Of a DNA stretch of 34,974 nt, positions 1-34,974 are shown one piece after another. Below the pieces are notes generated by a model that did not search any database, was not told the origin of the DNA, and saw nothing but the letters and a program-made list of their open reading frames with translations. Origin of the DNA: a virus (taxonomy: Duplodnaviria; Heunggongvirae; Uroviricota; Caudoviricetes); IMG/VR virus record IMGVR_UViG_2778261250_000007; one strand, written 5' to 3'. Each line of letters begins with the position of its first letter. The stretch's first letter is position 1. The position numbers and the translations under genes were made by a program.

Positions 1-258
1 ATGCAAACCGTTATTTTTGGTCGTTCGGGTTGCCCTTACTGTGTGCGTGCAAAAGATCTGGCTGAGAAATTGAGCAATGAACGCGATGATTTTCAGTATC
101 AGTATGTAGATATTCGTGCGGAAGGGATCACTAAAGAAGATCTACAACAAAAGGCAGGTAAACCCGTAGAAACCGTGCCGCAGATTTTTGTCGATCAGCA
201 ACATATCGGCGGCTATACCGATTTTGCTGCATGGGTGAAAGAAAATCTGGACGCCTGA
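1..258 (+). CDS. grxA: Glutaredoxin 1
   Basis: 85-aa ORF starting MQTVIFGRSGCPYCVRAKDLAEKL with the CPYC active site; recognised from memory as E. coli GrxA. ATG at 1, TGA at 256-258. Confidence 0.9.
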   Translation: MQTVIFGRSGCPYCVRAKDLAEKLSNERDDFQYQYVDIRAEGITKEDLQQKAGKPVETVPQIFVDQQHIGGYTDFAAWVKENLDA

Positions 259-267
259 TCGTCTGAC

Positions 268-300
268 AAGCCCTCGCGTTGAGGGCTTTACTGATTTTTT
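268..300. terminator. Hairpin between convergent grxA and ybjM (aagccctc-gcgtt-gagggctt, then T-rich tract)
   Basis: 8-bp inverted repeat at 268-288 followed by ctgatttttt. It overlaps the ybjM stop, so its role as a terminator is inferred. Confidence 0.35.
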
Positions 301-665
301 CTGTGCTGTGGTTTAAACAAACTACTGATAAATAAGAAACACAGTGCCCCCAGCGCACACCAGAACACCGCGCTTAGTAACCATGCCAGCTCTTGCCAGA
401 ATGAGCGCGTCGGTGAAAAAAACAGCCGCATAATGAGCATCGAACAGGGTGCCGCCAGCATTGCGCCAAACAGAGGTTTCAGGACTTCTCTACGCTGTGA
501 AAAGAAGCTGGCGACTGCTCCAGGAAGAATGAAAAATAGCAAGCCGATTTCAGGATGCCCGGCAGCCCGAAAAGCGCCTTTCATGTGCGTCGCCAGAAAA
601 AGGCACACCACAATGAAGAGGACAAAACAGCAGATTGCCCCCGCCCAACGTTGTTTATGTTTCAC
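288..665 (-). CDS. ybjM: Inner-membrane protein YbjM
   Basis: 125-aa hydrophobic ORF with GTG start at 665 preceded by GGAGGAACGA. Length and position between grxA and ybjL match the K-12 neighbourhood as I recall it. Confidence 0.75.
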   Translation of the reverse strand: MKHKQRWAGAICCFVLFIVVCLFLATHMKGAFRAAGHPEIGLLFFILPGAVASFFSQRREVLKPLFGAMLAAPCSMLIMRLFFSPTRSFWQELAWLLSAVFWCALGALCFLFISSLFKPQHRKNQ

Positions 666-934
666 TCGTTCCTCCTGACACTGCGTCTATCGAACACATT
701 TTTCGCCAGTGTGGCGTTCAGTAAGATAAAGCCGCTTCGCATTCCATGCTAATATAGGCCAACGCAATTCATATAGCCGTTGATACCTAATGTGATTACA
801 CTAGTAAAATATATTGTTACTTTACTATCGTTTAGGTGCGCTGAATGAATCTGCGCCCTGAATTCTGGTAAAAAACATTATCGTAAATTACCATTTCTTT
901 CAACAGCTTACTAGTAAACAAGAAGTTAGCCTCC

Positions 935-2620
935 GTGAATATAAACGTCGCCGAATTGTTAAATGGGAATTACATTCTGTTATTATTTGTGGTCCTCGCG
1001 CTTGGGCTATGTCTCGGAAAGTTACGACTTGGTTCGATCCAACTGGGTAATTCCATTGGCGTTTTAGTCGTATCGCTGTTATTAGGCCAACAACATTTCA
1101 GCATTAACACCGATGCGCTTAATCTTGGCTTTATGCTGTTTATTTTCTGCGTCGGGGTCGAAGCCGGACCGAACTTTTTTTCCATTTTTTTTCGCGATGG
1201 GAAAAATTACCTAATGTTAGCACTGGTGATGGTTGGCAGTGCGCTGGTGATCGCCTTAGGGTTAGGTAAGCTGTTTGGCTGGGATATTGGCCTGACGGCC
1301 GGTATGTTAGCAGGCTCTATGACGTCGACACCGGTTCTGGTCGGTGCTGGCGATACACTGCGTCATTCCGGCATGGAAAGCAGGCAGCTCTCACTGGCAC
1401 TGGATAATCTGAGCCTCGGGTATGCCTTAACCTATTTAATCGGTCTGGTGAGTTTGATTGTTGGTGCGCGTTACTTGCCGAAATTGCAGCATCAGGACTT
1501 ACAGACCAGCGCCCAGCAAATCGCCCGCGAACGTGGCCTGGACACTGATGCCAACCGTAAGGTTTATTTACCGGTGATCCGCGCCTATCGCGTCGGCCCG
1601 GAACTGGTGGCCTGGACCGACGGCAAAAATCTGCGTGAACTGGGTATTTATCGACAAACCGGCTGCTACATTGAACGTATTCGACGTAACGGGATTCTGG
1701 CAAATCCAGACGGTGATGCCGTGCTACAAATGGGCGATGAAATAGCGTTGGTAGGCTATCCCGACGCCCATGCCCGACTCGATCCCAGCTTCCGTAACGG
1801 TAAAGAAGTTTTCGATCGTGACCTTCTCGACATGCGTATCGTCACTGAAGAAGTGGTCGTTAAAAACCATAACGCTGTAGGTAAACGTCTCGCACAACTG
1901 AAGTTGACCGATCACGGTTGCTTCCTTAACCGCGTCATTCGTAGCCAGATTGAGATGCCGATAGATGACAACGTCGTGCTTAACAAAGGTGACGTTTTAC
2001 AAGTCAGCGGCGATGCCCGCCGCGTAAAAACCATCGCCGATCGCATCGGCTTTATCTCGATTCACAGCCAGGTCACTGACCTGCTGGCATTCTGCGCCTT
2101 CTTTGTTATTGGGCTGATGATCGGGATGATCACCTTCCAGTTCAGCACATTCAGTTTCGGCATGGGGAACGCTGCCGGGTTGTTATTCGCCGGAATTATG
2201 CTGGGCTTTATGCGTGCTAACCACCCGACCTTCGGTTACATTCCGCAAGGTGCATTAAGCATGGTGAAAGAGTTCGGCTTGATGGTGTTTATGGCAGGCG
2301 TTGGTCTGAGCGCCGGTAGCGGTATTAATAACGGCCTGGGCGCGATTGGCGGTCAGATGTTGATTGCCGGATTAATTGTCAGTCTTGTGCCCGTGGTTAT
2401 CTGTTTCTTGTTCGGTGCTTATGTATTGCGAATGAACCGCGCACTGTTGTTCGGCGCAATGATGGGCGCACGCACCTGCGCGCCGGCAATGGAGATCATC
2501 AGTGATACAGCTCGCAGTAACATCCCTGCGCTGGGCTATGCGGGCACCTACGCAATCGCCAACGTCCTGCTGACGCTGGCAGGGACAATCATCGTCATGG
2601 TATGGCCAGGATTAGGATAA
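935..2620 (+). CDS. ybjL: Putative AAE-family transporter YbjL
   Basis: 561-aa ORF with GTG start ([11 protein letters not shown]...), membrane domains flanking a soluble central region. Matches my recollection of E. coli YbjL. Confidence 0.85.
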
Positions 2621-2732
2621 AACTGAAGTTGCCCTGAAAATGAAATTTTTTTGCACAACCGCAGAACTTTTCCGCAGGGCATCAGTCTTAATTAGTGCCA
2701 CTGCTTTTCTTTGATGTCCCCATTTTGTGGAG

Positions 2733-2776
2733 CCCATCAACCCCGCCATTTCGGTTCAAGGTTGATGGGTTTTTTG
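2733..2776 (+). terminator. Terminator-like hairpin downstream of ybjL (cccatcaacc / ggttgatggg, 17-nt loop, then TTTTTTG)
   Basis: 10-bp perfect inverted repeat at 2733-2742 and 2760-2769 followed by a T-run. It lies in the host-prophage junction, so it may also be part of the attachment region. Confidence 0.35.
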
Positions 2777-2855
2777 TTGCCTGAAATTTATGCCGTTTAA
2801 AATCATGACGTTAGAAGCACTGTTTTTTAACGATGGCGACAAAATGGCGGCAGCG

Positions 2856-3074
2856 TCAAAGAGAGAGCGCCACCTGTCCTGATTTCATTGGATGCGGCTG
2901 AACCGGATTTGACTCTTTTGGCGTTGCAATCGAACGAACAAAAGTTTCATGGGTAACAAAAGTATGGCTGCAGTTAATGTTCTGGCACTGGTTGTAACGC
3001 TCTTTGGTCAATGAAGATACCTGAAAACTGCTGCGAGTATGGGCGGCACTTCCACACAGTGGGCAAATCATCAT
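2856..3074 (-). CDS. ogr: Late-gene transcriptional activator Ogr (zinc finger)
   Basis: 72-aa product MMICPLCGSAAHTRSS...QCQNINCSHTF with the C-x2-C...C-x4-C pattern typical of P2 Ogr. ATG at 3074 preceded by GGGGAGA; the track ORF is longer, and I chose the RBS-supported start. Confidence 0.8.
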   Translation of the reverse strand: MMICPLCGSAAHTRSSFQVSSLTKERYNQCQNINCSHTFVTHETFVRSIATPKESNPVQPHPMKSGQVALSL

Positions 3075-3164
3075 TTTTCGAGTTCTCCCCATTTTTGCTA
3101 AATTCACAATAATGATACCGCATTATTCCATTTTGCAAACTTAAAAGTTCTCCATTGCGAAGAA

Positions 3165-4265
3165 TCATTCCATTTCGAAATCATCAATCCTCACTTCAAG
3201 CTCCAGACTGGTCGTAAAACCGTTATCCGGGCTGACGGTATGTGTCAGAGTCGTAATGGTCCATTCCGCATCATCTATCGGCTGTTTAAAGCCACTGACT
3301 TTCACTGGCATTTCCGTGTAGAGATCTGCCCGCCCTTCTGCCAGTTGTAGCGAGAATGACGCAACGCCGCGTTGCAGGCGTTCCCACTGCATTTTCGCTG
3401 CCCGTTCAGCGTTGCTCCGGTTGGCATAAGTGCGATTAAGTACCAGCACATTTTCATCCGTACCCACCAGGTAATCGCCCTGCTTCGCTTCCGGCTCTTT
3501 CTTCTGCTTCTTAGTTCTGCGCTTACGCTTCACCGTGGTGCTTTCTTTCTTCGCAGGTTCGCGGGTATGCAACCAGCTGGCAATTACGCCCGTGTAGGCT
3601 CCGCGATCTGCCAGGGTAAAGCGGTGACTGTCGCCGTCCTTGCGTGTGATAGTGATCACTGGCAGTGGTTTACCAGTGGCGTTTTTGCCCTGTCCCTGCC
3701 GGATGAATAACAGATTGCCATTTTTCACCGACGCGATGGCACCGTACTGTCGCGCCAGCCGCATCAGAAAACTGCCGTCACTCTCATTAGTCTGGTCTAT
3801 ATGCTCCACGGGCTTATCCGACAGATCTTTACCCAGTGCCATCTTCAGCTTGTGCCGCGCGGCTATTTCCTTCACCACTTCCCCGACGGTGGTCTTGTGC
3901 CACGACTTTTCACGACGGGTATTCAGCGTTTCCCGAAAATCAGCACTTCGCGCCCGGATAGTCAGGCGGTCCGGTGCGCCAGTGTGTTCAATCTCGTCCA
4001 CCGTGAATGCCCCTTTCGGGAAAAGCGGCTGCCCCTTCCAGCCCAGCGCCAGCGTAATGACCGCACCACGGCGCGGCAGCACGATTTTTCCGTCGGCGTC
4101 GTCCAGCTCCAGATCAAGCTGGTCTGCGTCAAAGCCCCGGTTATCCGTCAGCGTCAGCCCCATCAGGCGGTTGTCCAGCACAGTGGTGATATCCCTGCCT
4201 TCAATACTGATGCTGAATGCCGGAGTTTTGTTGCCTTTGTTAAGCAGTTCAGAGCTGAAATTCAC
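3165..4265 (-). CDS. D: Tail protein D (late control D)
   Basis: 366 aa; position after U and before ogr. GTG start at 4265 with GGGAGGG upstream, overlapping the U stop (GTGA). Confidence 0.85.
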   Translation of the reverse strand: MNFSSELLNKGNKTPAFSISIEGRDITTVLDNRLMGLTLTDNRGFDADQLDLELDDADGKIVLPRRGAVITLALGWKGQPLFPKGAFTVDEIEHTGAPDRLTIRARSADFRETLNTRREKSWHKTTVGEVVKEIAARHKLKMALGKDLSDKPVEHIDQTNESDGSFLMRLARQYGAIASVKNGNLLFIRQGQGKNATGKPLPVITITRKDGDSHRFTLADRGAYTGVIASWLHTREPAKKESTTVKRKRRTKKQKKEPEAKQGDYLVGTDENVLVLNRTYANRSNAERAAKMQWERLQRGVASFSLQLAEGRADLYTEMPVKVSGFKQPIDDAEWTITTLTHTVSPDNGFTTSLELEVRIDDFEME

Positions 4266-4747
4266 GACAGCAGCCCTCCCACCGTTTTACTGATATCGCT
4301 TAATGCAGACGTTGCCGTATCCTGCAGATTATTCAGTTGAGTACTGAGATCCCCGAACATATCGGACAGGGATTCATCCACCCGTTTTAGCGAAAGGGTG
4401 AACTCAATCCTGCGCGGCATACCGTCGCGGAAAAACTCCGTTTTAGTCTGATTCAGTCCCTCAATCACATACATGCCGTAAATCGTGCCGCTGCCTTCAA
4501 TCAGGGGCCATGCTTTCCCCTGTTCTGCCATCTGCTCCAGTGCCAGCAACGACAGCCTGCCGCCTGTTATCTCCGGCATAAGAACACCGGAAAGCGTCAG
4601 CATGTCGTTTTCCGGTCCCAGAAACTGCGTGGACGGACGACGGTTTACCCGGCTGTTTGCCGCATGTCGCCAACTGCGTTGATACTGCAGTTCCTGATAC
4701 GGCACAGTGCGCAGCATAAACACGTACAATCCCAGCACCATCATCAT
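4262..4747 (-). CDS. U: Tail protein U
   Basis: 161 aa; ATG at 4747 overlapping the T stop; synteny T-U-D. Confidence 0.8.
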   Translation of the reverse strand: MMMVLGLYVFMLRTVPYQELQYQRSWRHAANSRVNRRPSTQFLGPENDMLTLSGVLMPEITGGRLSLLALEQMAEQGKAWPLIEGSGTIYGMYVIEGLNQTKTEFFRDGMPRRIEFTLSLKRVDESLSDMFGDLSTQLNNLQDTATSALSDISKTVGGLLS

Positions 4748-7700
4748 GCGTCGTATCCCCCCTGATCGCTGTAGTTACTCCTGGCTTTTGCCTTCAGCCT
4801 GCGTTCACGTTCATCAAGCTGGCGGGCCACCTCCCGCGCAATATCCTGCGCACTTTGTCCTGGCTGCGTCTGAATGATGATCTGCGTCGGTGCCTCAATC
4901 CGTTGAACGGGCGGCACAGTGGCTGCACGACTCACCATCGCTTCGCCGCCTTTCGCGGGAAGTGCCAAAGGATGCAACGGTGGAAGCTCTGCAGGCGCGG
5001 CAGCAACGCCCATCATTCCGGCAACAACGGCAGCCAGTGCAGCTGTATTTCTCCGGCTGGTCACATTTGCCGGGCCGTTAACAATTTCCGGCCCGTTTTC
5101 ACCGACGATGCCAAACTGCCCGCGCGGGATATACCCGCCGCTGTCATACATCCCCGCAAAGCCATATCCCCATGACGGAAAACCACCCGATGGCATCATC
5201 ACTTTACCGTCTGCATTCACCGTCGCAGGTTGCTGACGCGTCACGCTTTCCGGCAGTTTTGCCTTTGCAGCCTCTTTACTGACAATGCCGAGTTTCTCCA
5301 GCAACCAGGAAACGCCGGATTTCAGGGAGTCCAGCGGATGCATGACCATATTCAGCCCTTCCGCCAGTGCCTCCCCGAATCGTAGCCCCATTGCCGCTGC
5401 GCTCTGCAGTTCGGCAGAGGTCGACTTAACGGGCGTCAGCAGATCAGTAAACCAGCCCCACAACGCCTGCACTTTGTCGCAAATCCACTGAAACACAGGC
5501 TTAAGTGGTTCGAATGCTGCACTGATGGGACCTGCCGCCGCTTTGAATCCTTCCACCACACCAGCGAGAAATGCGGTGATGGGTTGCCAGTATTTCCAGA
5601 CAACCAGCGCCACGCCCGCCAGTGCAGTAACCACAAGACCTATCGGACTGAGCAGAGCACCTAACAGACCAGATATGGCATACAGAGCAACGCGCAGCAT
5701 CGCCAGCGGACCGGATGCCAGTACTCGCAGCACCGCGCCTGCGGCAGCCAGTCCACCGCGTAGTGCTGCCAGTGGATTCATAAACATCACAGCAACAGCA
5801 CGTAAACCGGATAATCCAGACCGCAACAGTGCAACCGGCACACCTGCAACAGTTTTCAGGACATTCCCCGTCAGTGATGCCGTGCGGCGCAAAGACGACA
5901 ACGGCGCAGTAAGTAAACCCGCTGCGTTGCCCGATGAAGCAAGCCCGCGTCGCAGCAGTGCCAGTGGAGCGCCAGCTAACCAGGACAACGCGCTGCTGGT
6001 TCGTGTTACTGCTACCGTAACGGAAGGTAACGTTTTGATACCCAGCACAGAGAATCCCAGACGGATGACTGCCAGCGGCCCCAGCACTGCAGCCAGCGCC
6101 ACCGCTAAGGTGCCGAGGCCTACGGTAACCGCAGCCACAACAGCCGCTACTTTCATCAGTGTGCCTGTCAGTTCCGGGTTAGCTTCCACCCAGCGGCGCA
6201 ACGCCCCCGTGATGCTTTTCACCGTGTACAGAATATCCATCAGCGGCTGGCGCAGCGTTTCGCCCAGGCTGCTGAAGGTGTTCTGCGCTCCGGTTTTGAC
6301 CAGCAACCACTGAGCAGAAAGTGAGTCTTTGTTGATGTCGGATTCTTTCTGCATGGAGCCGAGCGCATCATTGCCCGCTGTCAGTTTTAACTGACGCTGC
6401 AGTTCCGGCAGGTTGTTTGCCAGTTTCGCCGCGTCATCGCCAAACTCTTTACCAAACAACATGGTCATGGCAGACAGACGCTTATCCTGCGGCAGTGCGT
6501 TCACCTTCTCCAGCACACGCTGGATGGTTCCCATCGCATCCTTCGTCATCTGCTTTTCAATCACTTCAGGATTGAGTTTCAGCAGATTCATTCCTTCAAA
6601 GAAACTCTTGCTCTGCATGGTGGCAATGGACAATTCACGCACCATCGCGTTTGCTGCACTGGCTGCAACCTCCGGCGCAGCGCCCAGTGTCAGGAAGGTG
6701 GAACCCAGCGCCGCCGCTTTACGATAATCCAGACGGTCAGCCACACCGCCCAGACGTTGCATCACATCAATGATGTCTGCCCCTTTCGACATGGCGTTAT
6801 CATCCAGATAGTTCAGCGCATCACCGAGCTGTTCAATATTGCGGGTGGGAATTTTGTAGAGCTGGGCGATTTTCCCCAGACTTTCTGACAGTTCATCCGC
6901 TGGCAGCTCAAAGGCTGTTGCCGCCTTTGCTGCCGTACTGGCGAAGGCCAGCAGGTCACGTTTCTGGTCTTCCCAGCTGTCGTCAGGGTTTGCGACGTTC
7001 ATGCGCGCACCACCTTCAACCAGTGCAGCGAAGTCCACCGCACCGTTTTCCATCGGCAACTGTTCGCTGGCAGCTTTGATGGCATCCTGCATTTCGTAAA
7101 AACGCGCAGTGCGGTTGCCATTATCGTCACGCAGACCATTGACCTGCTTTGCCACACCTTTCATGGCATCTTCCATGCTGGTATAGCTTTTTACTGCCGC
7201 CATCACTGGCGCACCCATTGCCAGCCCTGCAGCCGTGGTAGTGGCTCCGGCTCCTGCGATGCGATCGCGCACTTCAAGCCGTCTTGAGTATTGTTCTCTG
7301 GCAGCGTTCATCCGTGCCTGTTGTTCACCCAGACGTTTAAGTGCTTTTTGCTGGCCCTCCAGTGCCTGCCTTGTTTCTTCAGCATTTTTCTTAAGTTCTC
7401 GCTGGGCACTACTGAGTTGTCTGGTATCAATCCCTGATTCTTTAAGTGCCTGACGTTGTCTCTGGACCGCCCCCAACAAGCCGTTATAGGTCTGCTGAAG
7501 TTCCTGTACTCGTGTTTTGGCCTGACTGAATAACTTTGCCTGCGCGGCGGTTGGCCTGTTAGTGGCAGCAAATTGTGTGGCGAGTTTTGCCGCCTCTTCG
7601 CGGGCTGCGTTCAGGTTGTTGGCTGTTATGGCTAGTTGCGAGCGCGTCTTGCGAAATTCATCAATTCTGCCAGACTGCTTATTCAGTTCTTTGAGGCTGT

Positions 7701-25167: not shown

Positions 25168-25785
25168 TTACCAGTTAAAAATTGATGAGCTGCGAATTGC
25201 AGGAACATCCGATGGATTTCGTTTAGCAGCTGGTTCCATCAACTTACGCTTATTAAATGCCTGATCAATATAATACTCAGGATTTTTAATAAAGACAGAG
25301 TATTTTACCAATGCACAATATACGTCAGAGTCATTATAATGGGGAACTGTTTTTTCATAAACATGATTCTTTCTAACCAGATAAGGCAAATAATAATCAT
25401 ATCCCAAACCTGGCGTTCTTAGACTTATAGAACATCCGCATGATGGATCTGCACATACTGCAGGAGTAAACACACTGTCGTAAATTTCATCTCTGATAAC
25501 ACCAATTAGACCATTATAGTTTTCTCCCCAGAGTGATGCTTGAATTTCAGTGTTTACAAATGGACGATTTTTGGTTTCCGTTCCAATAAGAACGACAGTA
25601 ACCGTTGAGTCTTTTAAAAAATCCTCACGAATAGTCCTCATTATTGTTTCATCAGTGTTAGTTGTACTAATGTCACCATCACTTACCGACTTATCAATAA
25701 ACGATTCTCCTCCGAATAAATCAATAATCTCATCTTTGAGATCTTGTTCGTTAGCATGATGATAACTAAGAAACGTCTTATGCAT
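25168..25785 (-). CDS. ThsB-like TIR-domain protein (TIR_like/DUF1863 type)
   Basis: 205 aa. N-terminal TFLSYHHANEQD and central STVTVVLIGTETKNRPFVNTEI resemble my recollection of Bacillus ThsB (VFFSFHYQDV and TSVTCVLIGSQTFNRRWVRYEI). ATG at 25785 preceded by GGAGTG and overlapping the upstream gene's TAA (TAATG). AT-rich. Confidence 0.7.
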   Translation of the reverse strand: MHKTFLSYHHANEQDLKDEIIDLFGGESFIDKSVSDGDISTTNTDETIMRTIREDFLKDSTVTVVLIGTETKNRPFVNTEIQASLWGENYNGLIGVIRDEIYDSVFTPAVCADPSCGCSISLRTPGLGYDYYLPYLVRKNHVYEKTVPHYNDSDVYCALVKYSVFIKNPEYYIDQAFNKRKLMEPAAKRNPSDVPAIRSSSIFNW

Positions 25786-32033: not shown

Positions 32034-32543
32034 TCACAGCAAACCGAATGAAGCACCGAGGCCAGTCACGGTATCAACTGCACTCGCCATCGCAGGATTA
32101 GCCTGTAAACGGGCCTGCAATGAAACAGCCGCCAGCGCCATCAGTCGTGTTACAGAGTTAATGCTGCTGATAGCATCACGACGACCTGCACTGGTTTTTA
32201 CATCGCCAGATACCGCACCTGCAGCAACACGCCCGATCTCTGCGGTTGCACTCATGACGTAATGTGGCAGTTTCTCTTTTGCTACCTCATTAATCGGTAC
32301 ACATGGCAGACAATGAATCTGTGCCAGAAAACCATCTACCAACGTTGAATCTTCAGTCAGATCGGTAAGCAGCCAGATTTCTGGTGCGGTTAATAAATGA
32401 GGTTGAGCTGGGTTCAGCTTGTTCCGCAGAATCTGCACATTCATGCCCGCACGTTCTGCCAGTTGCACCAGATTGTGGCGCAGTGCGAATGCACGACAGG
32501 CTTCATCAAAATGTGGATGTTTGGAAACTTGGTAATCAAACAT
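32034..32543 (-). CDS. cII: Phage regulatory protein CII (186-type)
   Basis: 169 aa from ATG at 32543 ([45 protein letters not shown]...) with GGAG upstream. Confidence 0.7.
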
Positions 32544-32607
32544 GGTTTTCAACTCCGAACTTATCGCAAAATCGAACTCAGCGTCTTATTGCGAAAATAG
32601 ACGTCTA

Positions 32608-32811
32608 TTAAGCAGACAAAGCATCAACAGTCAGAGCAGCCAGGTTAATCATTACCTTTTCACGTTTTTTGTCTTTACGAAGACGATGACGAGGTAGTCG
32701 GCCATCAGCCAACATGTCGTTAATCGTATCAATAGAAAGGCCAGTCAGTTCGCTATAACGTTCGATTGTGACATGTGGTGTATTCAGAGTAATTGAAATG
32801 TTAGGTGTCAT
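32608..32811 (-). CDS. Apl/Cox-like small HTH DNA-binding protein (excision/lytic regulator)
   Basis: 67 aa, ATG at 32811, first gene of the lytic operon divergent from cI. HTH-like segment [22 protein letters not shown]. Confidence 0.6.
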
Positions 32812-32900
32812 AAGGCAACATTCCTTCTAGATATGGCTTGTGGCGAGCCGTTGTTTGTCGTGATTAGTAGTGAAGGCTCCAAAAGAACACTTCTGGTTCA

Positions 32901-32929
32901 ACTTTAAGATCGCTTTTGGAATCTGTCAA
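32901..32929 (-). promoter_or_regulatory. Candidate early lytic promoter (pR/Pe-like), -35 TTGACA / -10 TAAAGT, within a repeat-containing operator region
   Basis: Minus-strand TTGACA (32929..32924), 17-nt spacer, TAAAGT (32906..32901). Plus-strand TTTTGGA copies at 32914 and 32934 flank the -35, with a third TTTGGA at 32945. Confidence 0.4.
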
Positions 32930-32956
32930 CGAATTTTGGATTTCTTTGGAGGACTT

Positions 32957-33526
32957 GTGGATTTCAATAGCGGCGGTAAGAAAGCCATAGAACGTTTAGT
33001 TGAAGCATATGGGTTCGGTACTCGTCAGGCTCTCTGTGATCATTTAGGTGTTTCTAAGAGCACTATGGCAACGCGCTATATGCGTGATATTTTTCCAGCA
33101 GATTGGGTAATCCAGTGCGCCCTTGAAACGGGCACCTCGCTTAATTGGCTAACAACAGGGCATGGTTCAAAGCAAGCATCAGCAAATACAAATACTATAG
33201 AAGTAGAAAAATATTTATTGTCTGATGGAGCATTGCAGAAAGACGGTTTTTATATTTTTGATAAGGGATTTCTACCCTCTACGTTTAAAAAACCTTTTGT
33301 CATCACAGATAACAATTCTGAATTTATTTGTGATAAAGAATTTGATGATATACGTGATGGTAAATGGGTAATAAGTATTGATGGCGAAATAACGATCCGT
33401 GACATTACTCGTTTACCCGGTGGAAGAATCTTCGTCGAGGGTGGAAACAGAGCCTTCGAATGCAAGATAGAAGACATTGAAATAATTGGTAAAATTATAA
33501 GTTTAACAGTCAAGTATGTTAAATAG
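32957..33526 (+). CDS. cI: CI-type immunity repressor (186 CI-like)
   Basis: 189 aa from GTG at 32957 (strong RBS GGAGGA): (M)DFNSGGKKAIERLVEAYGFGTRQALCDHLGVSKSTMATRYMRD... The track ORF starts 29 codons upstream at a GTG without an RBS. Confidence 0.7.
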   Translation: MDFNSGGKKAIERLVEAYGFGTRQALCDHLGVSKSTMATRYMRDIFPADWVIQCALETGTSLNWLTTGHGSKQASANTNTIEVEKYLLSDGALQKDGFYIFDKGFLPSTFKKPFVITDNNSEFICDKEFDDIRDGKWVISIDGEITIRDITRLPGGRIFVEGGNRAFECKIEDIEIIGKIISLTVKYVK

Positions 33527-33541
33527 TACCGGGAGGAAACT

Positions 33542-33733
33542 ATGCTTGGTAAGGTATTTTTTGTGGTTTTGTCATGTTCTTTGTTATTAAACCCACTAAC
33601 TACCTATGCTAGAAATTATCCCTGCTCAGGGAAAAAGGGAGGTGTTTCTCACTGTACCTCAGATGGCAAATTCGTTTGCAATGATGGAACTATTAGTAAA
33701 TCCAAAAAAATCTGTACTAAAAACTCACGATAA
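33542..33733 (+). CDS. Small secreted Cys-rich protein (moron candidate) between cI and int
   Basis: 63 aa, ATG with strong RBS GGGAGGAAAC. Signal peptide [23 protein letters not shown], then a 40-aa mature region with four Cys and many Lys. AT-rich. Confidence 0.5.
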
Positions 33734-33921
33734 TTTTTGTTTTTATATCTGCGTCTAAAATAAAAATGAGCCGCAGGTTAACCGCAAAAGTTACATGCTC
33801 ACATAGCAAAAAGAATAGCCAACTTCATTATGGCTTCAGTGAGATGTATGGTCGTAGGATTTCATACATTGACACTGGTTATACATACAGTAAAAATGCT
33901 CTCTACTGGAGGGCATTTTTT

Positions 33922-34974
33922 ATGGCAGTACGAAAACTCACCACAGGGAAATGGCTTTGCGAATGTTACCCCGCCGGACGAAGTGGGCGTCGTGTGCGTA
34001 AACAATTCGCCACCAAAGGCGAAGCTCTGGCTTTTGAGCGTCACACGATGGAAGAAACCGAATCAAAGCCCTGGCTGGGCGAATCAGTGGATCGTCGAAC
34101 CCTGAAAGACGTGGTTGAGCTATGGTTCAAACTACATGGTAAATCTCTGACTGCTGGACAGCATGTCTATGACAAATTGCTGCTGATGGTTGACGCTCTA
34201 GGCAATCCTCTTGCAACCGATCTCACCTCTAAAATGTTTGCCCACTATCGAGATAAACGCCTGACAGGCGAGATCTACTTCAGCGAGAAATGGAAGAAAG
34301 GAGCAAGCCCGGTCACCATTAACCTGGAGCAAAGCTATCTAAGTAGTGTTTTTAGCGAACTATCCCGTCTGGGCGAATGGTCGTATCCGAACCCACTGGA
34401 GAACATGCGAAAATTCACCATCGCAGAAAAAGAGATGGCATGGCTTACCCATGAGCAGATTGTTGAATTGCTGGCTGATTGCAAACGTCAGGACCCAATT
34501 CTGGCACTGGTAGTTAAGATATGCTTAAGCACAGGCGCACGCTGGCGTGAAGCCGTAAATCTTACCCGCTCGCAGGTGACCAAATACCGAATTACCTTTG
34601 TCAGAACGAAGGGGAAGAAAAACAGAAGCATCCCTATCAGTAAAGAGCTTTACGAAGAGATCATGGCGCTTGATGGGTTCAATTTCTTCACAGACTGCTA
34701 TTTTCAATTTTTATCCGTGATGGAAAAAACGTCTATCGTGCTCCCTCGCGGTCAACTCACACACGTTCTGCGCCATACGTTTGCGGCGCACTTCATGATG
34801 TCGGGTGGAAACATTCTGGCCTTACAAAAAATTCTCGGACACCACGATATAAAAATGACTATGCGTTACGCACATCTGGCACCGGATCATCTGGAAACGG
34901 CGCTCCGTTTCAATCCTCTGGCAACGCTGCCAAGTGGCGACAAAGTGGCGGCAGCGGTTGGCATTACCCCGTAA
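33922..34974 (+). CDS. int: Tyrosine integrase (P2/186 family)
   Basis: 350 aa from ATG at 33922 (RBS GGAGGG; MAVRKLTTGKWLCECYPAG...). C-terminal catalytic region HVLRHTFAAHFMMSGGNILALQKILGHHDIKMTMRYAHL carries the R...H-x-x-R...Y signature. Stop at 34972-34974, the window end. Confidence 0.85.
   Translation: MAVRKLTTGKWLCECYPAGRSGRRVRKQFATKGEALAFERHTMEETESKPWLGESVDRRTLKDVVELWFKLHGKSLTAGQHVYDKLLLMVDALGNPLATDLTSKMFAHYRDKRLTGEIYFSEKWKKGASPVTINLEQSYLSSVFSELSRLGEWSYPNPLENMRKFTIAEKEMAWLTHEQIVELLADCKRQDPILALVVKICLSTGARWREAVNLTRSQVTKYRITFVRTKGKKNRSIPISKELYEEIMALDGFNFFTDCYFQFLSVMEKTSIVLPRGQLTHVLRHTFAAHFMMSGGNILALQKILGHHDIKMTMRYAHLAPDHLETALRFNPLATLPSGDKVAAAVGITP

Follow-up and report, generated by a model that had tools for sequence, protein, structure and literature searches.

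A YdcA family gene beside the cI repressor of a 186-like Escherichia coli prophage

The ydcA-like gene and its product

The IMG/VR virus record IMGVR_UViG_2778261250_000007 is a stretch of 34,974 nucleotides (hereafter the window) holding a 186-like prophage (Peduoviridae) of E. coli inserted next to rcdA, and the subject of this report is a gene of 63 codons that lies between cI, the repressor gene, and the gene for integrase (int) of that prophage. By its profile matches it is a prophage-borne member of the already named, widespread and uncharacterised YdcA family, it is a real gene under strong purifying selection, and it is an accessory gene of the cI-int region. An earlier sequence-only reading of the window had placed an AT-rich open reading frame (ORF) of 63 amino acids with a strong ribosome-binding site at this position, and its exact coordinates are confirmed (Table 1), as is its place between cI and int, on which Pfam and RefSeq agree. 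The Shine-Dalgarno sequence GGGAGG is also found in the copy of E. coli ATCC 8739, and the copy of E. coli HE302 has TGGAGG, retaining the GGAGG core. The ORF is indeed AT-rich, with a GC content of 35.4% against 50.9% for the window, and the neighbouring cI has 38%; the same reading went too far in calling the prophage GC-rich, as 50.9% is ordinary for E. coli.

The product was said to have a clear signal peptide followed by a Lys-rich mature part of 40 residues with four cysteines, and an analysis of n-, h- and c-regions supports this. The n-region is made up of residues 1-4 (MLGK), the h-region of the 12 residues 5-16, with a mean Kyte-Doolittle hydropathy of 2.86, and the c-region of residues 17-23 (NPLTTYA), with the predicted cleavage site between TYA and R. 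Nearly all of the 28 aligned family members (>=90% of columns) have an Ala at position -1, 3-6 residues ahead of an invariant PCS motif, and the n/h/c architecture and the AxA-type site are kept in these 28 divergent homologues despite unrelated signal sequences. Comparisons with ATCC 8739, with HE302 and across the family show that the signal sequence varies freely and that the mature part is almost invariant, which is the pattern expected of an exported functional peptide, and on these sequence features the product is very probably exported. A lipoprotein, with Cys12 (in VVLSC) as the modified residue, was considered and rejected: Cys12 is not conserved, the homologues show LFC, LIC or LVC with no fit to a lipobox, and it is the AxA site that is conserved.

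The mature peptide has a mass of 4.29 kDa, an isoelectric point of 9.7 and a net charge of +6.8, with seven Lys, two Arg and four Cys. A single-sequence AlphaFold2 model of it shows a beta-hairpin and has a predicted local distance difference test (pLDDT) score of 80.8, the corresponding score for the full-length product being 64. An Rfam scan of positions 32500-34974 returned nothing relevant, and hence gives no evidence for an RNA element instead of a protein.

Table 1. Features of the window that are discussed in the text.
Feature	Coordinates	Strand	Basis and remarks
ydcA-like coding sequence, YdcA family protein	33542..33733	+	ORF list, NCBIfam, PHROG, RefSeq; 63 aa plus stop, ATG start
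Shine-Dalgarno sequence GGGAGG	33531..33536	+	Read from the sequence; 5 nt ahead of the ydcA-like ATG
Predicted Sec-type signal peptide, residues 1-23	33542..33610	+	Predicted cleavage after TYA, before RN; n/h/c analysis and family Ala at -1
Predicted mature basic peptide of 40 aa, four invariant Cys	33611..33730	+	Family alignments, composition, AlphaFold2 model
cI repressor, 186/HP1 type	32957..33526	+	Pfam Phage_CI_repr 3e-31, Phage_CI_C 5e-29; RefSeq
Apl/Cox-like excisionase-repressor, lytic operon	32608..32811	-	Weak HTH_17 and Phage_Cox matches; divergent from cI
pR-like sigma-70 promoter TTGACA-17-TAAAGT, facing the lytic genes	32901..32929	-	Promoter scan
Spacer after the ydcA-like gene	33734..33891	+	No intrinsic-terminator-like site on the plus strand by simple scan
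A-tract, 13-bp hairpin, T-tract	33892..33921	+	Abuts the int start codon and buries the int Shine-Dalgarno sequence
Tyrosine integrase, 350 aa (RefSeq)	33922..34974	+	Pfam Int_N, Phage_integrase; RefSeq coding sequence
AIPR/AbiU-like protein, 581 aa	14964-16709	+	Pfam AIPR 3e-26; PADLOC AbiU 5e-28
ORF of 124 aa	16888-17262	+	Inserted with the AIPR/AbiU-like gene in the tail-gene block, opposite strand
ThsB-like TIR protein	25168-25785	-	Pfam ThsB_TIR 1e-14; GpA-GpQ hotspot
Partner of the ThsB-like TIR protein, 243 aa	25785-26516	-	No family match; adjacent

Membership of the YdcA family

The gene is not an orphan, as it falls into a named family with a chromosomal paralogue in E. coli K-12. 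The NCBIfam model NF007463 matches the product with 115.8 bits (cut-off 93, E 5.3e-34) over 58 of its 58 positions and PHROG 6000 with E 1.9e-34, whilst RefSeq has an identical protein, WP_000900883.1, annotated as 'YdcA family protein' at the identical place in NZ_OZ501612.1, flanked by 'phage repressor protein CI' on one side and 'phage integrase' on the other. The Pfam-A copy that was scanned predates the family entry PF27300, which is, however, found precomputed on all close homologues of the product. Two weak matches were set aside, one to the GULLO2-like family of Pfam-A (E 0.075), which is below threshold and put down to chance, and one to the NCBIfam model lpg1681 (E 0.11), which was taken as noise. 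The family core reads PCSGKKGG...F[VI]C.DG..S.SK..C, and all its invariant columns are present in the product, the four cysteines included.

The YdcA family is large, falling into 312 clusters at 50% identity or 2215 at 90%, and it ranges over Alpha-, Beta- and Gammaproteobacteria. The mature peptide is near-invariant from Rhizobium to E. coli, non-mobile chromosomal loci included. Longer forms are also known, for example tandem proteins with two or three repeats (P0081, of 129 aa, P0082 and P0080) and two-domain proteins of 100-115 aa, the latter notably in Pseudomonas and some of them also with PF08789 (PBCV basic adaptor).

The chromosomal paralogue is ydcA (b1419) of E. coli K-12, which lies between cybB/rydC and hokB and encodes a protein of 57 aa that is predicted to be periplasmic (bioRxiv 10.1101/2024.02.12.579971). 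The two proteins are of one family (PRK10040 models NF007462/NF007463, PF27300), and have in common a signal peptide, a mature part of ~35-40 aa, four cysteines and the motif PCSG(K/S)KGG..HC. They differ in their signal peptides and in their NCBIfam subfamilies: the K-12-type model NF007462 gives the prophage product 68.5 bits, which is below its cut-off of 118, with E 4e-19 over residues 23-59, and the DNA of the two genes matches at 78%. Furthermore the K-12 gene is a stand-alone chromosomal gene with its own regulation, whereas the prophage copy is tied to the cI repressor. The genes called 'ydcA' in F-like plasmids (an adenine methylase in pS88) and in the gonococcal genetic island are apparently unrelated and share the name only.

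Selection and distribution

Between the ORF and its 91%-identical copy in ATCC 8739 there are 11 synonymous codon changes and one conservative non-synonymous change (R24K); the adjacent cI has 36 synonymous and 24 replacement changes in the same comparison. Over the 34-codon core of the family, taken from 28 species with identical cysteine spacing, the proportion of non-synonymous differences (pN) is 0.20 and that of synonymous differences (pS) is 0.88, the latter being saturated. Of 5426 complete E. coli genomes, 592-626 (about 11-12%) have the module of the ORF and this cI allele, HS and ATCC 8739 being among them with copies that are 91-97% identical, and a coding sequence is annotated at the match to the ORF in every E. 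coli record listed, the matching genomes being roughly 600. That the ORF is a chance reading frame or a decaying remnant might be suggested by its shortness, by its AT-richness and by the lack of annotation in the genomes of phages HP2 and S2 and of Acinetobacter phages; against this it passes a curated family threshold, has a conserved ribosome-binding site, shows synonymous changes far above non-synonymous ones and is intact in all those E. coli records, so that this explanation is refuted as far as sequence analysis allows.

The gene is not a fixed part of this type of phage. Phage vB_EcoM-813R9, which has the same integrase and the same attachment site, is without it, as are Klebsiella phages with an integrase that is 96-97% identical. 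Beyond the repressor region, homologues occur in phages of Moraxella and Acinetobacter, where they sit among the late genes, on plasmids of Acinetobacter and Rhizobium and in ordinary chromosomal contexts. A survey was made of 80 species-representative genomic loci, by all-versus-all clustering and by matches to the phage proteins of the window, and in at least 22 of these loci proteins homologous to those of this prophage are encoded within 4.5 kb. The YdcA-like gene thus often travels on mobile elements and markedly favours, in P2-like phages, the slot next to the repressor.

Organisation and probable expression of the cI-int region

The local order is cII and the apl/cox-like gene on the minus strand, followed by cI, the ydcA-like gene and int on the plus strand, and the apl/cox-like gene is placed as in 186, HP2 and K139. 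With a pR-like promoter facing the lytic genes (Table 1), the lysogenic promoter must lie to the left of this site on the plus strand, giving a face-to-face arrangement of promoters as in phage 186. The gap between the cI stop codon and the ydcA-like ATG is 15 nt, and a sequence scan found no promoter-like or terminator-like site on the plus strand between the two genes. A near-consensus sigma-70-like site on the minus strand (TTAACA-17-TATAAT, 11 of 12 matches, 33494-33522) falls within the 3' end of cI and points into that gene in antisense direction; chance in AT-rich DNA or an antisense promoter may account for it.

The distance from the stop codon of the ORF to the start of int is 188 nt when the RefSeq start of int is used, which is at 33922 and not at 33766. 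The last part of this interval is a hairpin, between an A-tract and a T-tract, with a folding energy of -17.5 kcal/mol (z = -6.7) that is matched by none of 200 shuffled sequences. It is kept in ATCC 8739 with one change in the loop and forms part of the conserved sequence next to int; as its T-run is included in the stem, it escaped the simple terminator scan. It looks like a bidirectional terminator that would also occlude translation, and that would insulate int from the repressor operon.

Given the 15-nt gap, the absence of a promoter of its own from the scan and the terminator ahead of int, cI and the ydcA-like gene look like one lysogenic transcription unit with int insulated from it, and this is the simplest reading of the region. 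The earlier suggestion that the gene is a moron therefore stands in part. As with the classical morons of lambdoid phages, it is an addition that is absent from relatives, it is of atypical GC content (35% against 51%), it is followed by a terminator and it would be expected to be expressed from the prophage. Classical morons are, however, units of promoter, gene and terminator, whereas this gene has no promoter of its own, lies in the repressor operon and, like cI, has a low GC content; it would thus be a passenger of the repressor operon rather than a self-contained moron. The further suggestion, that the product is made in the lysogen and exported, also holds to a degree: the gene is positioned for expression in the lysogen and its product is a strong candidate for export.

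A variable slot between cI and int

A megablast search with positions 32800-34974 showed that phages with the same integrase lose homology to the left of ~33844-33864, and this is where a variable slot ends on the right; its borders are fixed, and it runs from the cI stop codon to ~80 nt upstream of int. The integrase itself is 96-97% identical in Klebsiella and Escherichia Peduoviridae. In vB_EcoM-813R9 the slot is occupied by a 558-aa protein that matches PD-Lambda-1 with E 3e-120 (L003 822-2498), and in E. coli HE302 it holds a ydcA-like gene followed by a KAP NTPase that matches PDC-S20 with E 3e-171 (L168 2039-3370). AbiU/AIPR-like and ThsB-TIR-like genes occupy the two classical P2 hotspots of the present prophage, and in 186-like E. 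coli prophages the interval between cI and int behaves as a third hotspot of defence genes. A defence hotspot between cI and integrase has been described for K139-like Vibrio phages (Rousset et al., PMC9122126), and a minor one between integrase and primase for P2-like prophages (PMC13586616, with 8165 such prophages).

The ydcA-like gene resembles the cargo of the accessory hotspots of P2-like phages (the old/tin/fun loci and the integrase-primase interval) in lying in a variable slot with fixed borders. Unlike that cargo it matches no defence model, and it can share the slot with a defence gene, always keeping its place next to cI; it might thus belong to the immunity module and not be cargo open to exchange.

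The closest parallel to the arrangement is Glo of the Vibrio phage K139, which is annotated in GenBank as 'periplasmic protein; involved in phage exclusion' and whose gene lies between cI and int; Glo is described as small, with a signal peptide and expressed in the lysogen (PMC4870250). The product of the ydcA-like gene resembles it in this position, in its probable place in the lysogenic PL operon of a P2/HP1-related phage and in its signal peptide. The two are not homologous, as hhalign gives a probability of 1.7% and aligns only the signal peptides; Glo has 137 aa and is not stapled by cysteines, and exclusion activity is documented for Glo only.

Repressor-proximal homologues in other phages

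The Haemophilus phages HP2 and S2 contain an unannotated homologue of 60 aa whose ATG overlaps the cI stop codon, starting at the last base of cI, and which has the annotated pL upstream of it, with orf1(S) and int following downstream. The repressor-proximal layout arose independently in these phages. In the survey of 80 loci, six had the order of a 186/HP1-type cI, a ydcA-like gene and int: those of Escherichia, of three Yersinia species and of Spirabiliibacterium, and one on a contig with the label Bacillota, which is probably contaminating E. coli DNA. This last contig (L087, JAEWTL010000113.1, 'MAG: Bacillota bacterium', where MAG stands for metagenome-assembled genome; 3057 nt) carries cII, cI, a 100% identical ydcA-like gene and int of this prophage type, and is almost certainly mis-binned or a contaminant in a Bacillota MAG. 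Eleven further loci, in P2-like prophages, have a repressor-like gene ~1.3 kb upstream on the same strand, these genes being recognised by an N-terminal helix-turn-helix-type sequence without confirmation of domains by family scan, and in most of the eleven the P2 gpD, tape-measure and gpU genes converge from downstream.

In two phages the homologue is followed by a second gene whose start overlaps it or lies close to it. In a P2-like prophage of Acinetobacter lwoffii (L139 5932-6542) this encodes an exported lipoprotein of 147 aa, and in HP2 it is orf1(S) (L002 3112-3876), which encodes a protein of 254 aa with a signal-peptide-like hydrophobic N-terminus. Such pairs of a ydcA-like gene and a second exported protein may be two-component envelope modules.

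Probable relationship to Dis2 and association with nucleases

No solved structure is clearly homologous to the product, but the best match in the PDB, by profile and by Foldseek alike, is Dis2 (Lpg0823; 7MUC chain AN), an outer-membrane-cap subunit of the Legionella Dot/Icm system. The profile match has E 0.003 when the signal peptide is included and 0.19 when it is left out, and Foldseek, run with the single-sequence model of the mature peptide, which is a weak basis for the comparison, gives a probability of 0.87, a template modelling (TM) score of 0.59 and 40% identity over 37 columns. Three proteins underlie the comparison of Dis2 with YdcA, namely P0081, P0228 and P0227: the tandem-repeat protein P0081 matches lobe 1 of Dis2 in a pairwise comparison with E 3e-5 and so bridges both families, and the Dis2 homologue P0227 carries the same precomputed PF27300. 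The motif common to the family of the ORF and to Dis2 is CS.KMGG..YC....G..VCN(N/D)G..S, and the tandem-repeat YdcA proteins mirror Dis2 in size and in two-lobe layout. Dis2 has been described as a stoichiometric subunit of the secretion machine with two similar lobes and five disulfides, located near the outer membrane (PMC8486379). Like the prophage product as predicted here it is a secreted, small beta module pinned by disulfides, and it is the sole solved structure that resembles the peptide; however, Dis2 has two lobes and is part of a secretion machine, whereas the prophage protein has a single lobe, and the support for homology is marginal. Genes for type IV secretion were found neither in the ORF list of the window nor among the recurrent neighbours of the homologues. 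That Dis2 is a two-lobe member of a YdcA/PF27300 superfamily is probable but unproven, judged on profile matches and a modelled fold.

A second association is with nucleases. Behind a signal peptide, the YdcA domain forms the N-terminal part of fusions with Endonuclease_NS in P0193, P0172 and P0183 and with SNase in P0138, these being two unrelated nuclease folds. Among the 80 species loci, five have a SNase gene adjacent on the same strand and two more have the Endonuclease_NS fusion (L128, L148, L098, L099, L140, L161 and L162 being the nuclease-associated loci), and the SNase neighbours in Brucella, Shinella and Microvirga bear signal peptides of their own. The association points to a role with extracytoplasmic DNA or in the anchoring of enzymes in the envelope. 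In Brucella/Ochrobactrum (L098-L100, ~250-5800) a protein of 1852 aa with DUF4011, an AAA_11/AAA_12 helicase, an MTES_1575 nuclease and DUF3320 is encoded directly upstream of the pair of YdcA-like and SNase genes in three species, and this neighbourhood looks like a defence island.

Possible function

It is probable that the gene is co-transcribed with cI in the lysogen and that its product is exported by Sec, cleaved after Ala23, closed by disulfides and resident in the periplasm, as gene order and sequence features together suggest. The lysogenic promoter would drive the ydcA-like gene along with the CI repressor, giving continuous production in the lysogen; the precursor would be exported, cleaved after TYA and stapled by two disulfides in the periplasm, where the mature peptide would stay. 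Here a cationic disulfide-stapled module lying under the outer membrane could bind a polyanionic partner or one in an outer-membrane complex, most plausibly incoming DNA or the apparatus through which DNA enters, and the entry of superinfecting phages or of other foreign DNA would thereby be hindered. The peptide would then serve in the protection of the lysogen at the level of the envelope, as a minimal form of superinfection exclusion analogous to K139 Glo in position and localisation, and this is our best guess, put forward tentatively, as a possible function rather than a likely one. In its favour are the defence genes found in the same slot and the links of the family to nucleases and to Dis2.

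Several points weigh against it. Transcription, export and phenotype of the gene are all inferred, and the product matches no family of PADLOC-DB 2.0 at E <= 0.01. The analogy with Glo is limited to position and localisation because Glo is not homologous, and the fusion to nucleases fits a role in anchoring or folding equally well and need not mean that DNA is bound. In Moraxella and Acinetobacter phages the homologues lie in the late region, away from the repressor. Furthermore many members of the family are ordinary non-mobile chromosomal genes, such as ydcA of K-12, whose chromosomal setting speaks more for housekeeping or a part in stress than for defence, and the sole phenotype that the literature gives for ydcA is that the deletion mutant is sensitive to 3-hydroxypropionate, together with induction at acid pH (PMC7642389).

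The prophage copy might accordingly repeat the job of chromosomal YdcA, for example in tolerance of acid or organic acids, in which case it would improve the fitness of the lysogen, as in classical lysogenic conversion, without any part in defence. The mature peptide is close to that of the chromosomal protein, as the NF007462 and DNA matches given above show, and many family members are in non-mobile chromosomal loci; in E. coli W, deletion of ydcA severely reduces growth in 300 mM 3-hydroxypropionate and the gene is reported to be induced at pH 5 (PMC7642389), and a constitutive promoter signal dependent on RpoS has been seen at ydcA (PMC5493296). However, the phenotype comes from one study, is without a mechanism and is suppressed by deletion of yieP (PMC7642389), and since E. 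coli already has a chromosomal ydcA a second copy would add dosage only. Nor would such a role account for the recurrence of the gene behind the repressors of unrelated P2-like lineages or for its presence in a slot that defence systems also use. We consider it somewhat unlikely, ranking only a little below exclusion at the envelope. A different possibility is that the peptide, as a single Dis2 lobe, docks on an outer-membrane-associated complex, which might be a secretin, a porin or a receptor, or else a type IV secretion system or pilus, and remodels it, for example masking the phage's own receptor or a channel for conjugation or DNA uptake. This would fit Dis2 as the top PDB match by sequence and by fold, the PF27300 of its homologue P0227, the match of P0081 to lobe 1 and the position of Dis2 near the outer membrane in its complex (PMC8486379), and the UniRef name of the E. 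coli cluster is 'Conjugal transfer protein'. The basis of that name is untraceable, though, Dis2 is itself without a known function, and secretion-system genes are absent from the window and from the surroundings of most homologues, which leaves such an adaptor an unlikely explanation.

It would seem more doubtful again that the peptide is the partner of a nuclease, which it would tether, activate or inhibit, or from which it would shield DNA, so modulating the degradation of foreign DNA in the periplasm. The fusions to two unrelated nuclease families and the same-strand neighbours in Brucella, Shinella and Microvirga, SNases that each have a signal peptide, argue for this, and a SNase also appeared in a noisy scan as one immediate upstream neighbour of the family; but no nuclease gene adjoins the ORF in this prophage or in most loci, and the association is seen in only ~10% of loci. 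The periplasmic nuclease of E. coli, EndA, is not known to belong to either of the fused families, which counts against a nuclease partner as well. A bacteriocin-like peptide or secreted effector, roles that the sequence-only reading had entertained, would be a cationic, cysteine-stabilised peptide released for the killing of competitors or for action on a host. The small size, the charge of +6.8 and the two potential disulfides give the product a superficial likeness to defensins or class II bacteriocins, but its leader is of the ordinary Sec type and not of the double-glycine type, and so would deliver it only to the periplasm in E. coli. There is no adjacent gene for immunity, for an ABC exporter or for lysis, the sole neighbours being cI and int, and the single-copy chromosomal paralogues also have no immunity partner; the mature sequence is near-invariant from Rhizobium to E. 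coli, unlike that of fast-evolving toxins. A bacteriocin or effector is thus very improbable.

On the tentative reading of envelope-level exclusion a wider and more speculative proposal can be built, in which YdcA mini-proteins are a hitherto unrecognised and very widespread class of periplasmic gatekeepers, each a single Dis2-like, disulfide-stapled lobe that would bind DNA or the DNA-translocation apparatus of the outer membrane. P2-like phages would have hard-wired one of them to the repressor as a factor in exclusion or against DNA entry, and the chromosomal and nuclease-fused forms would be domesticated. In this breadth the proposal is doubtful. Should the peptide be produced along with CI and have its action in the periplasm, it would be among the smallest known factors of lysogenic conversion or exclusion, and about one sequenced E. 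coli in nine would have it; homologues are found in related phages of Haemophilus, Yersinia, Moraxella, Acinetobacter and Comamonas. If true, this would also offer the first functional handle on the y-gene ydcA, on the more than 2000 protein clusters of its family and on the orphan Dot/Icm subunit Dis2, whilst a mere housekeeping stress duplicate would make the ORF routine prophage cargo.

That the product is a YdcA family protein is already stated by public annotation. In the searchable literature no paper mentions the RefSeq accessions, PF27300 or PHROG 6000, and the repressor-proximal placement in P2-like phages, the HP2/S2 homologue, the link to Dis2 and the nuclease fusions are apparently undescribed there; we offer these as leads and not as demonstrations.

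Other accessory genes of the prophage

The prophage extends from ~3.1 kb to the end of the window, which coincides with the int stop codon and leaves the attachment site just outside. Positions 1-2620 are host DNA, with ybjM (288-584, minus strand) and a gene for an Asp-Al_Ex/TrkA_C permease (1133-2620, plus strand). Within the prophage the AIPR/AbiU-like gene and the 124-aa ORF inserted with it (Table 1) are probably abortive-infection cargo in the tail-gene hotspot of P2. Finally, the ThsB-like TIR protein and its 243-aa partner are a possible Thoeris-like system, or a novel TIR defence system of two genes.

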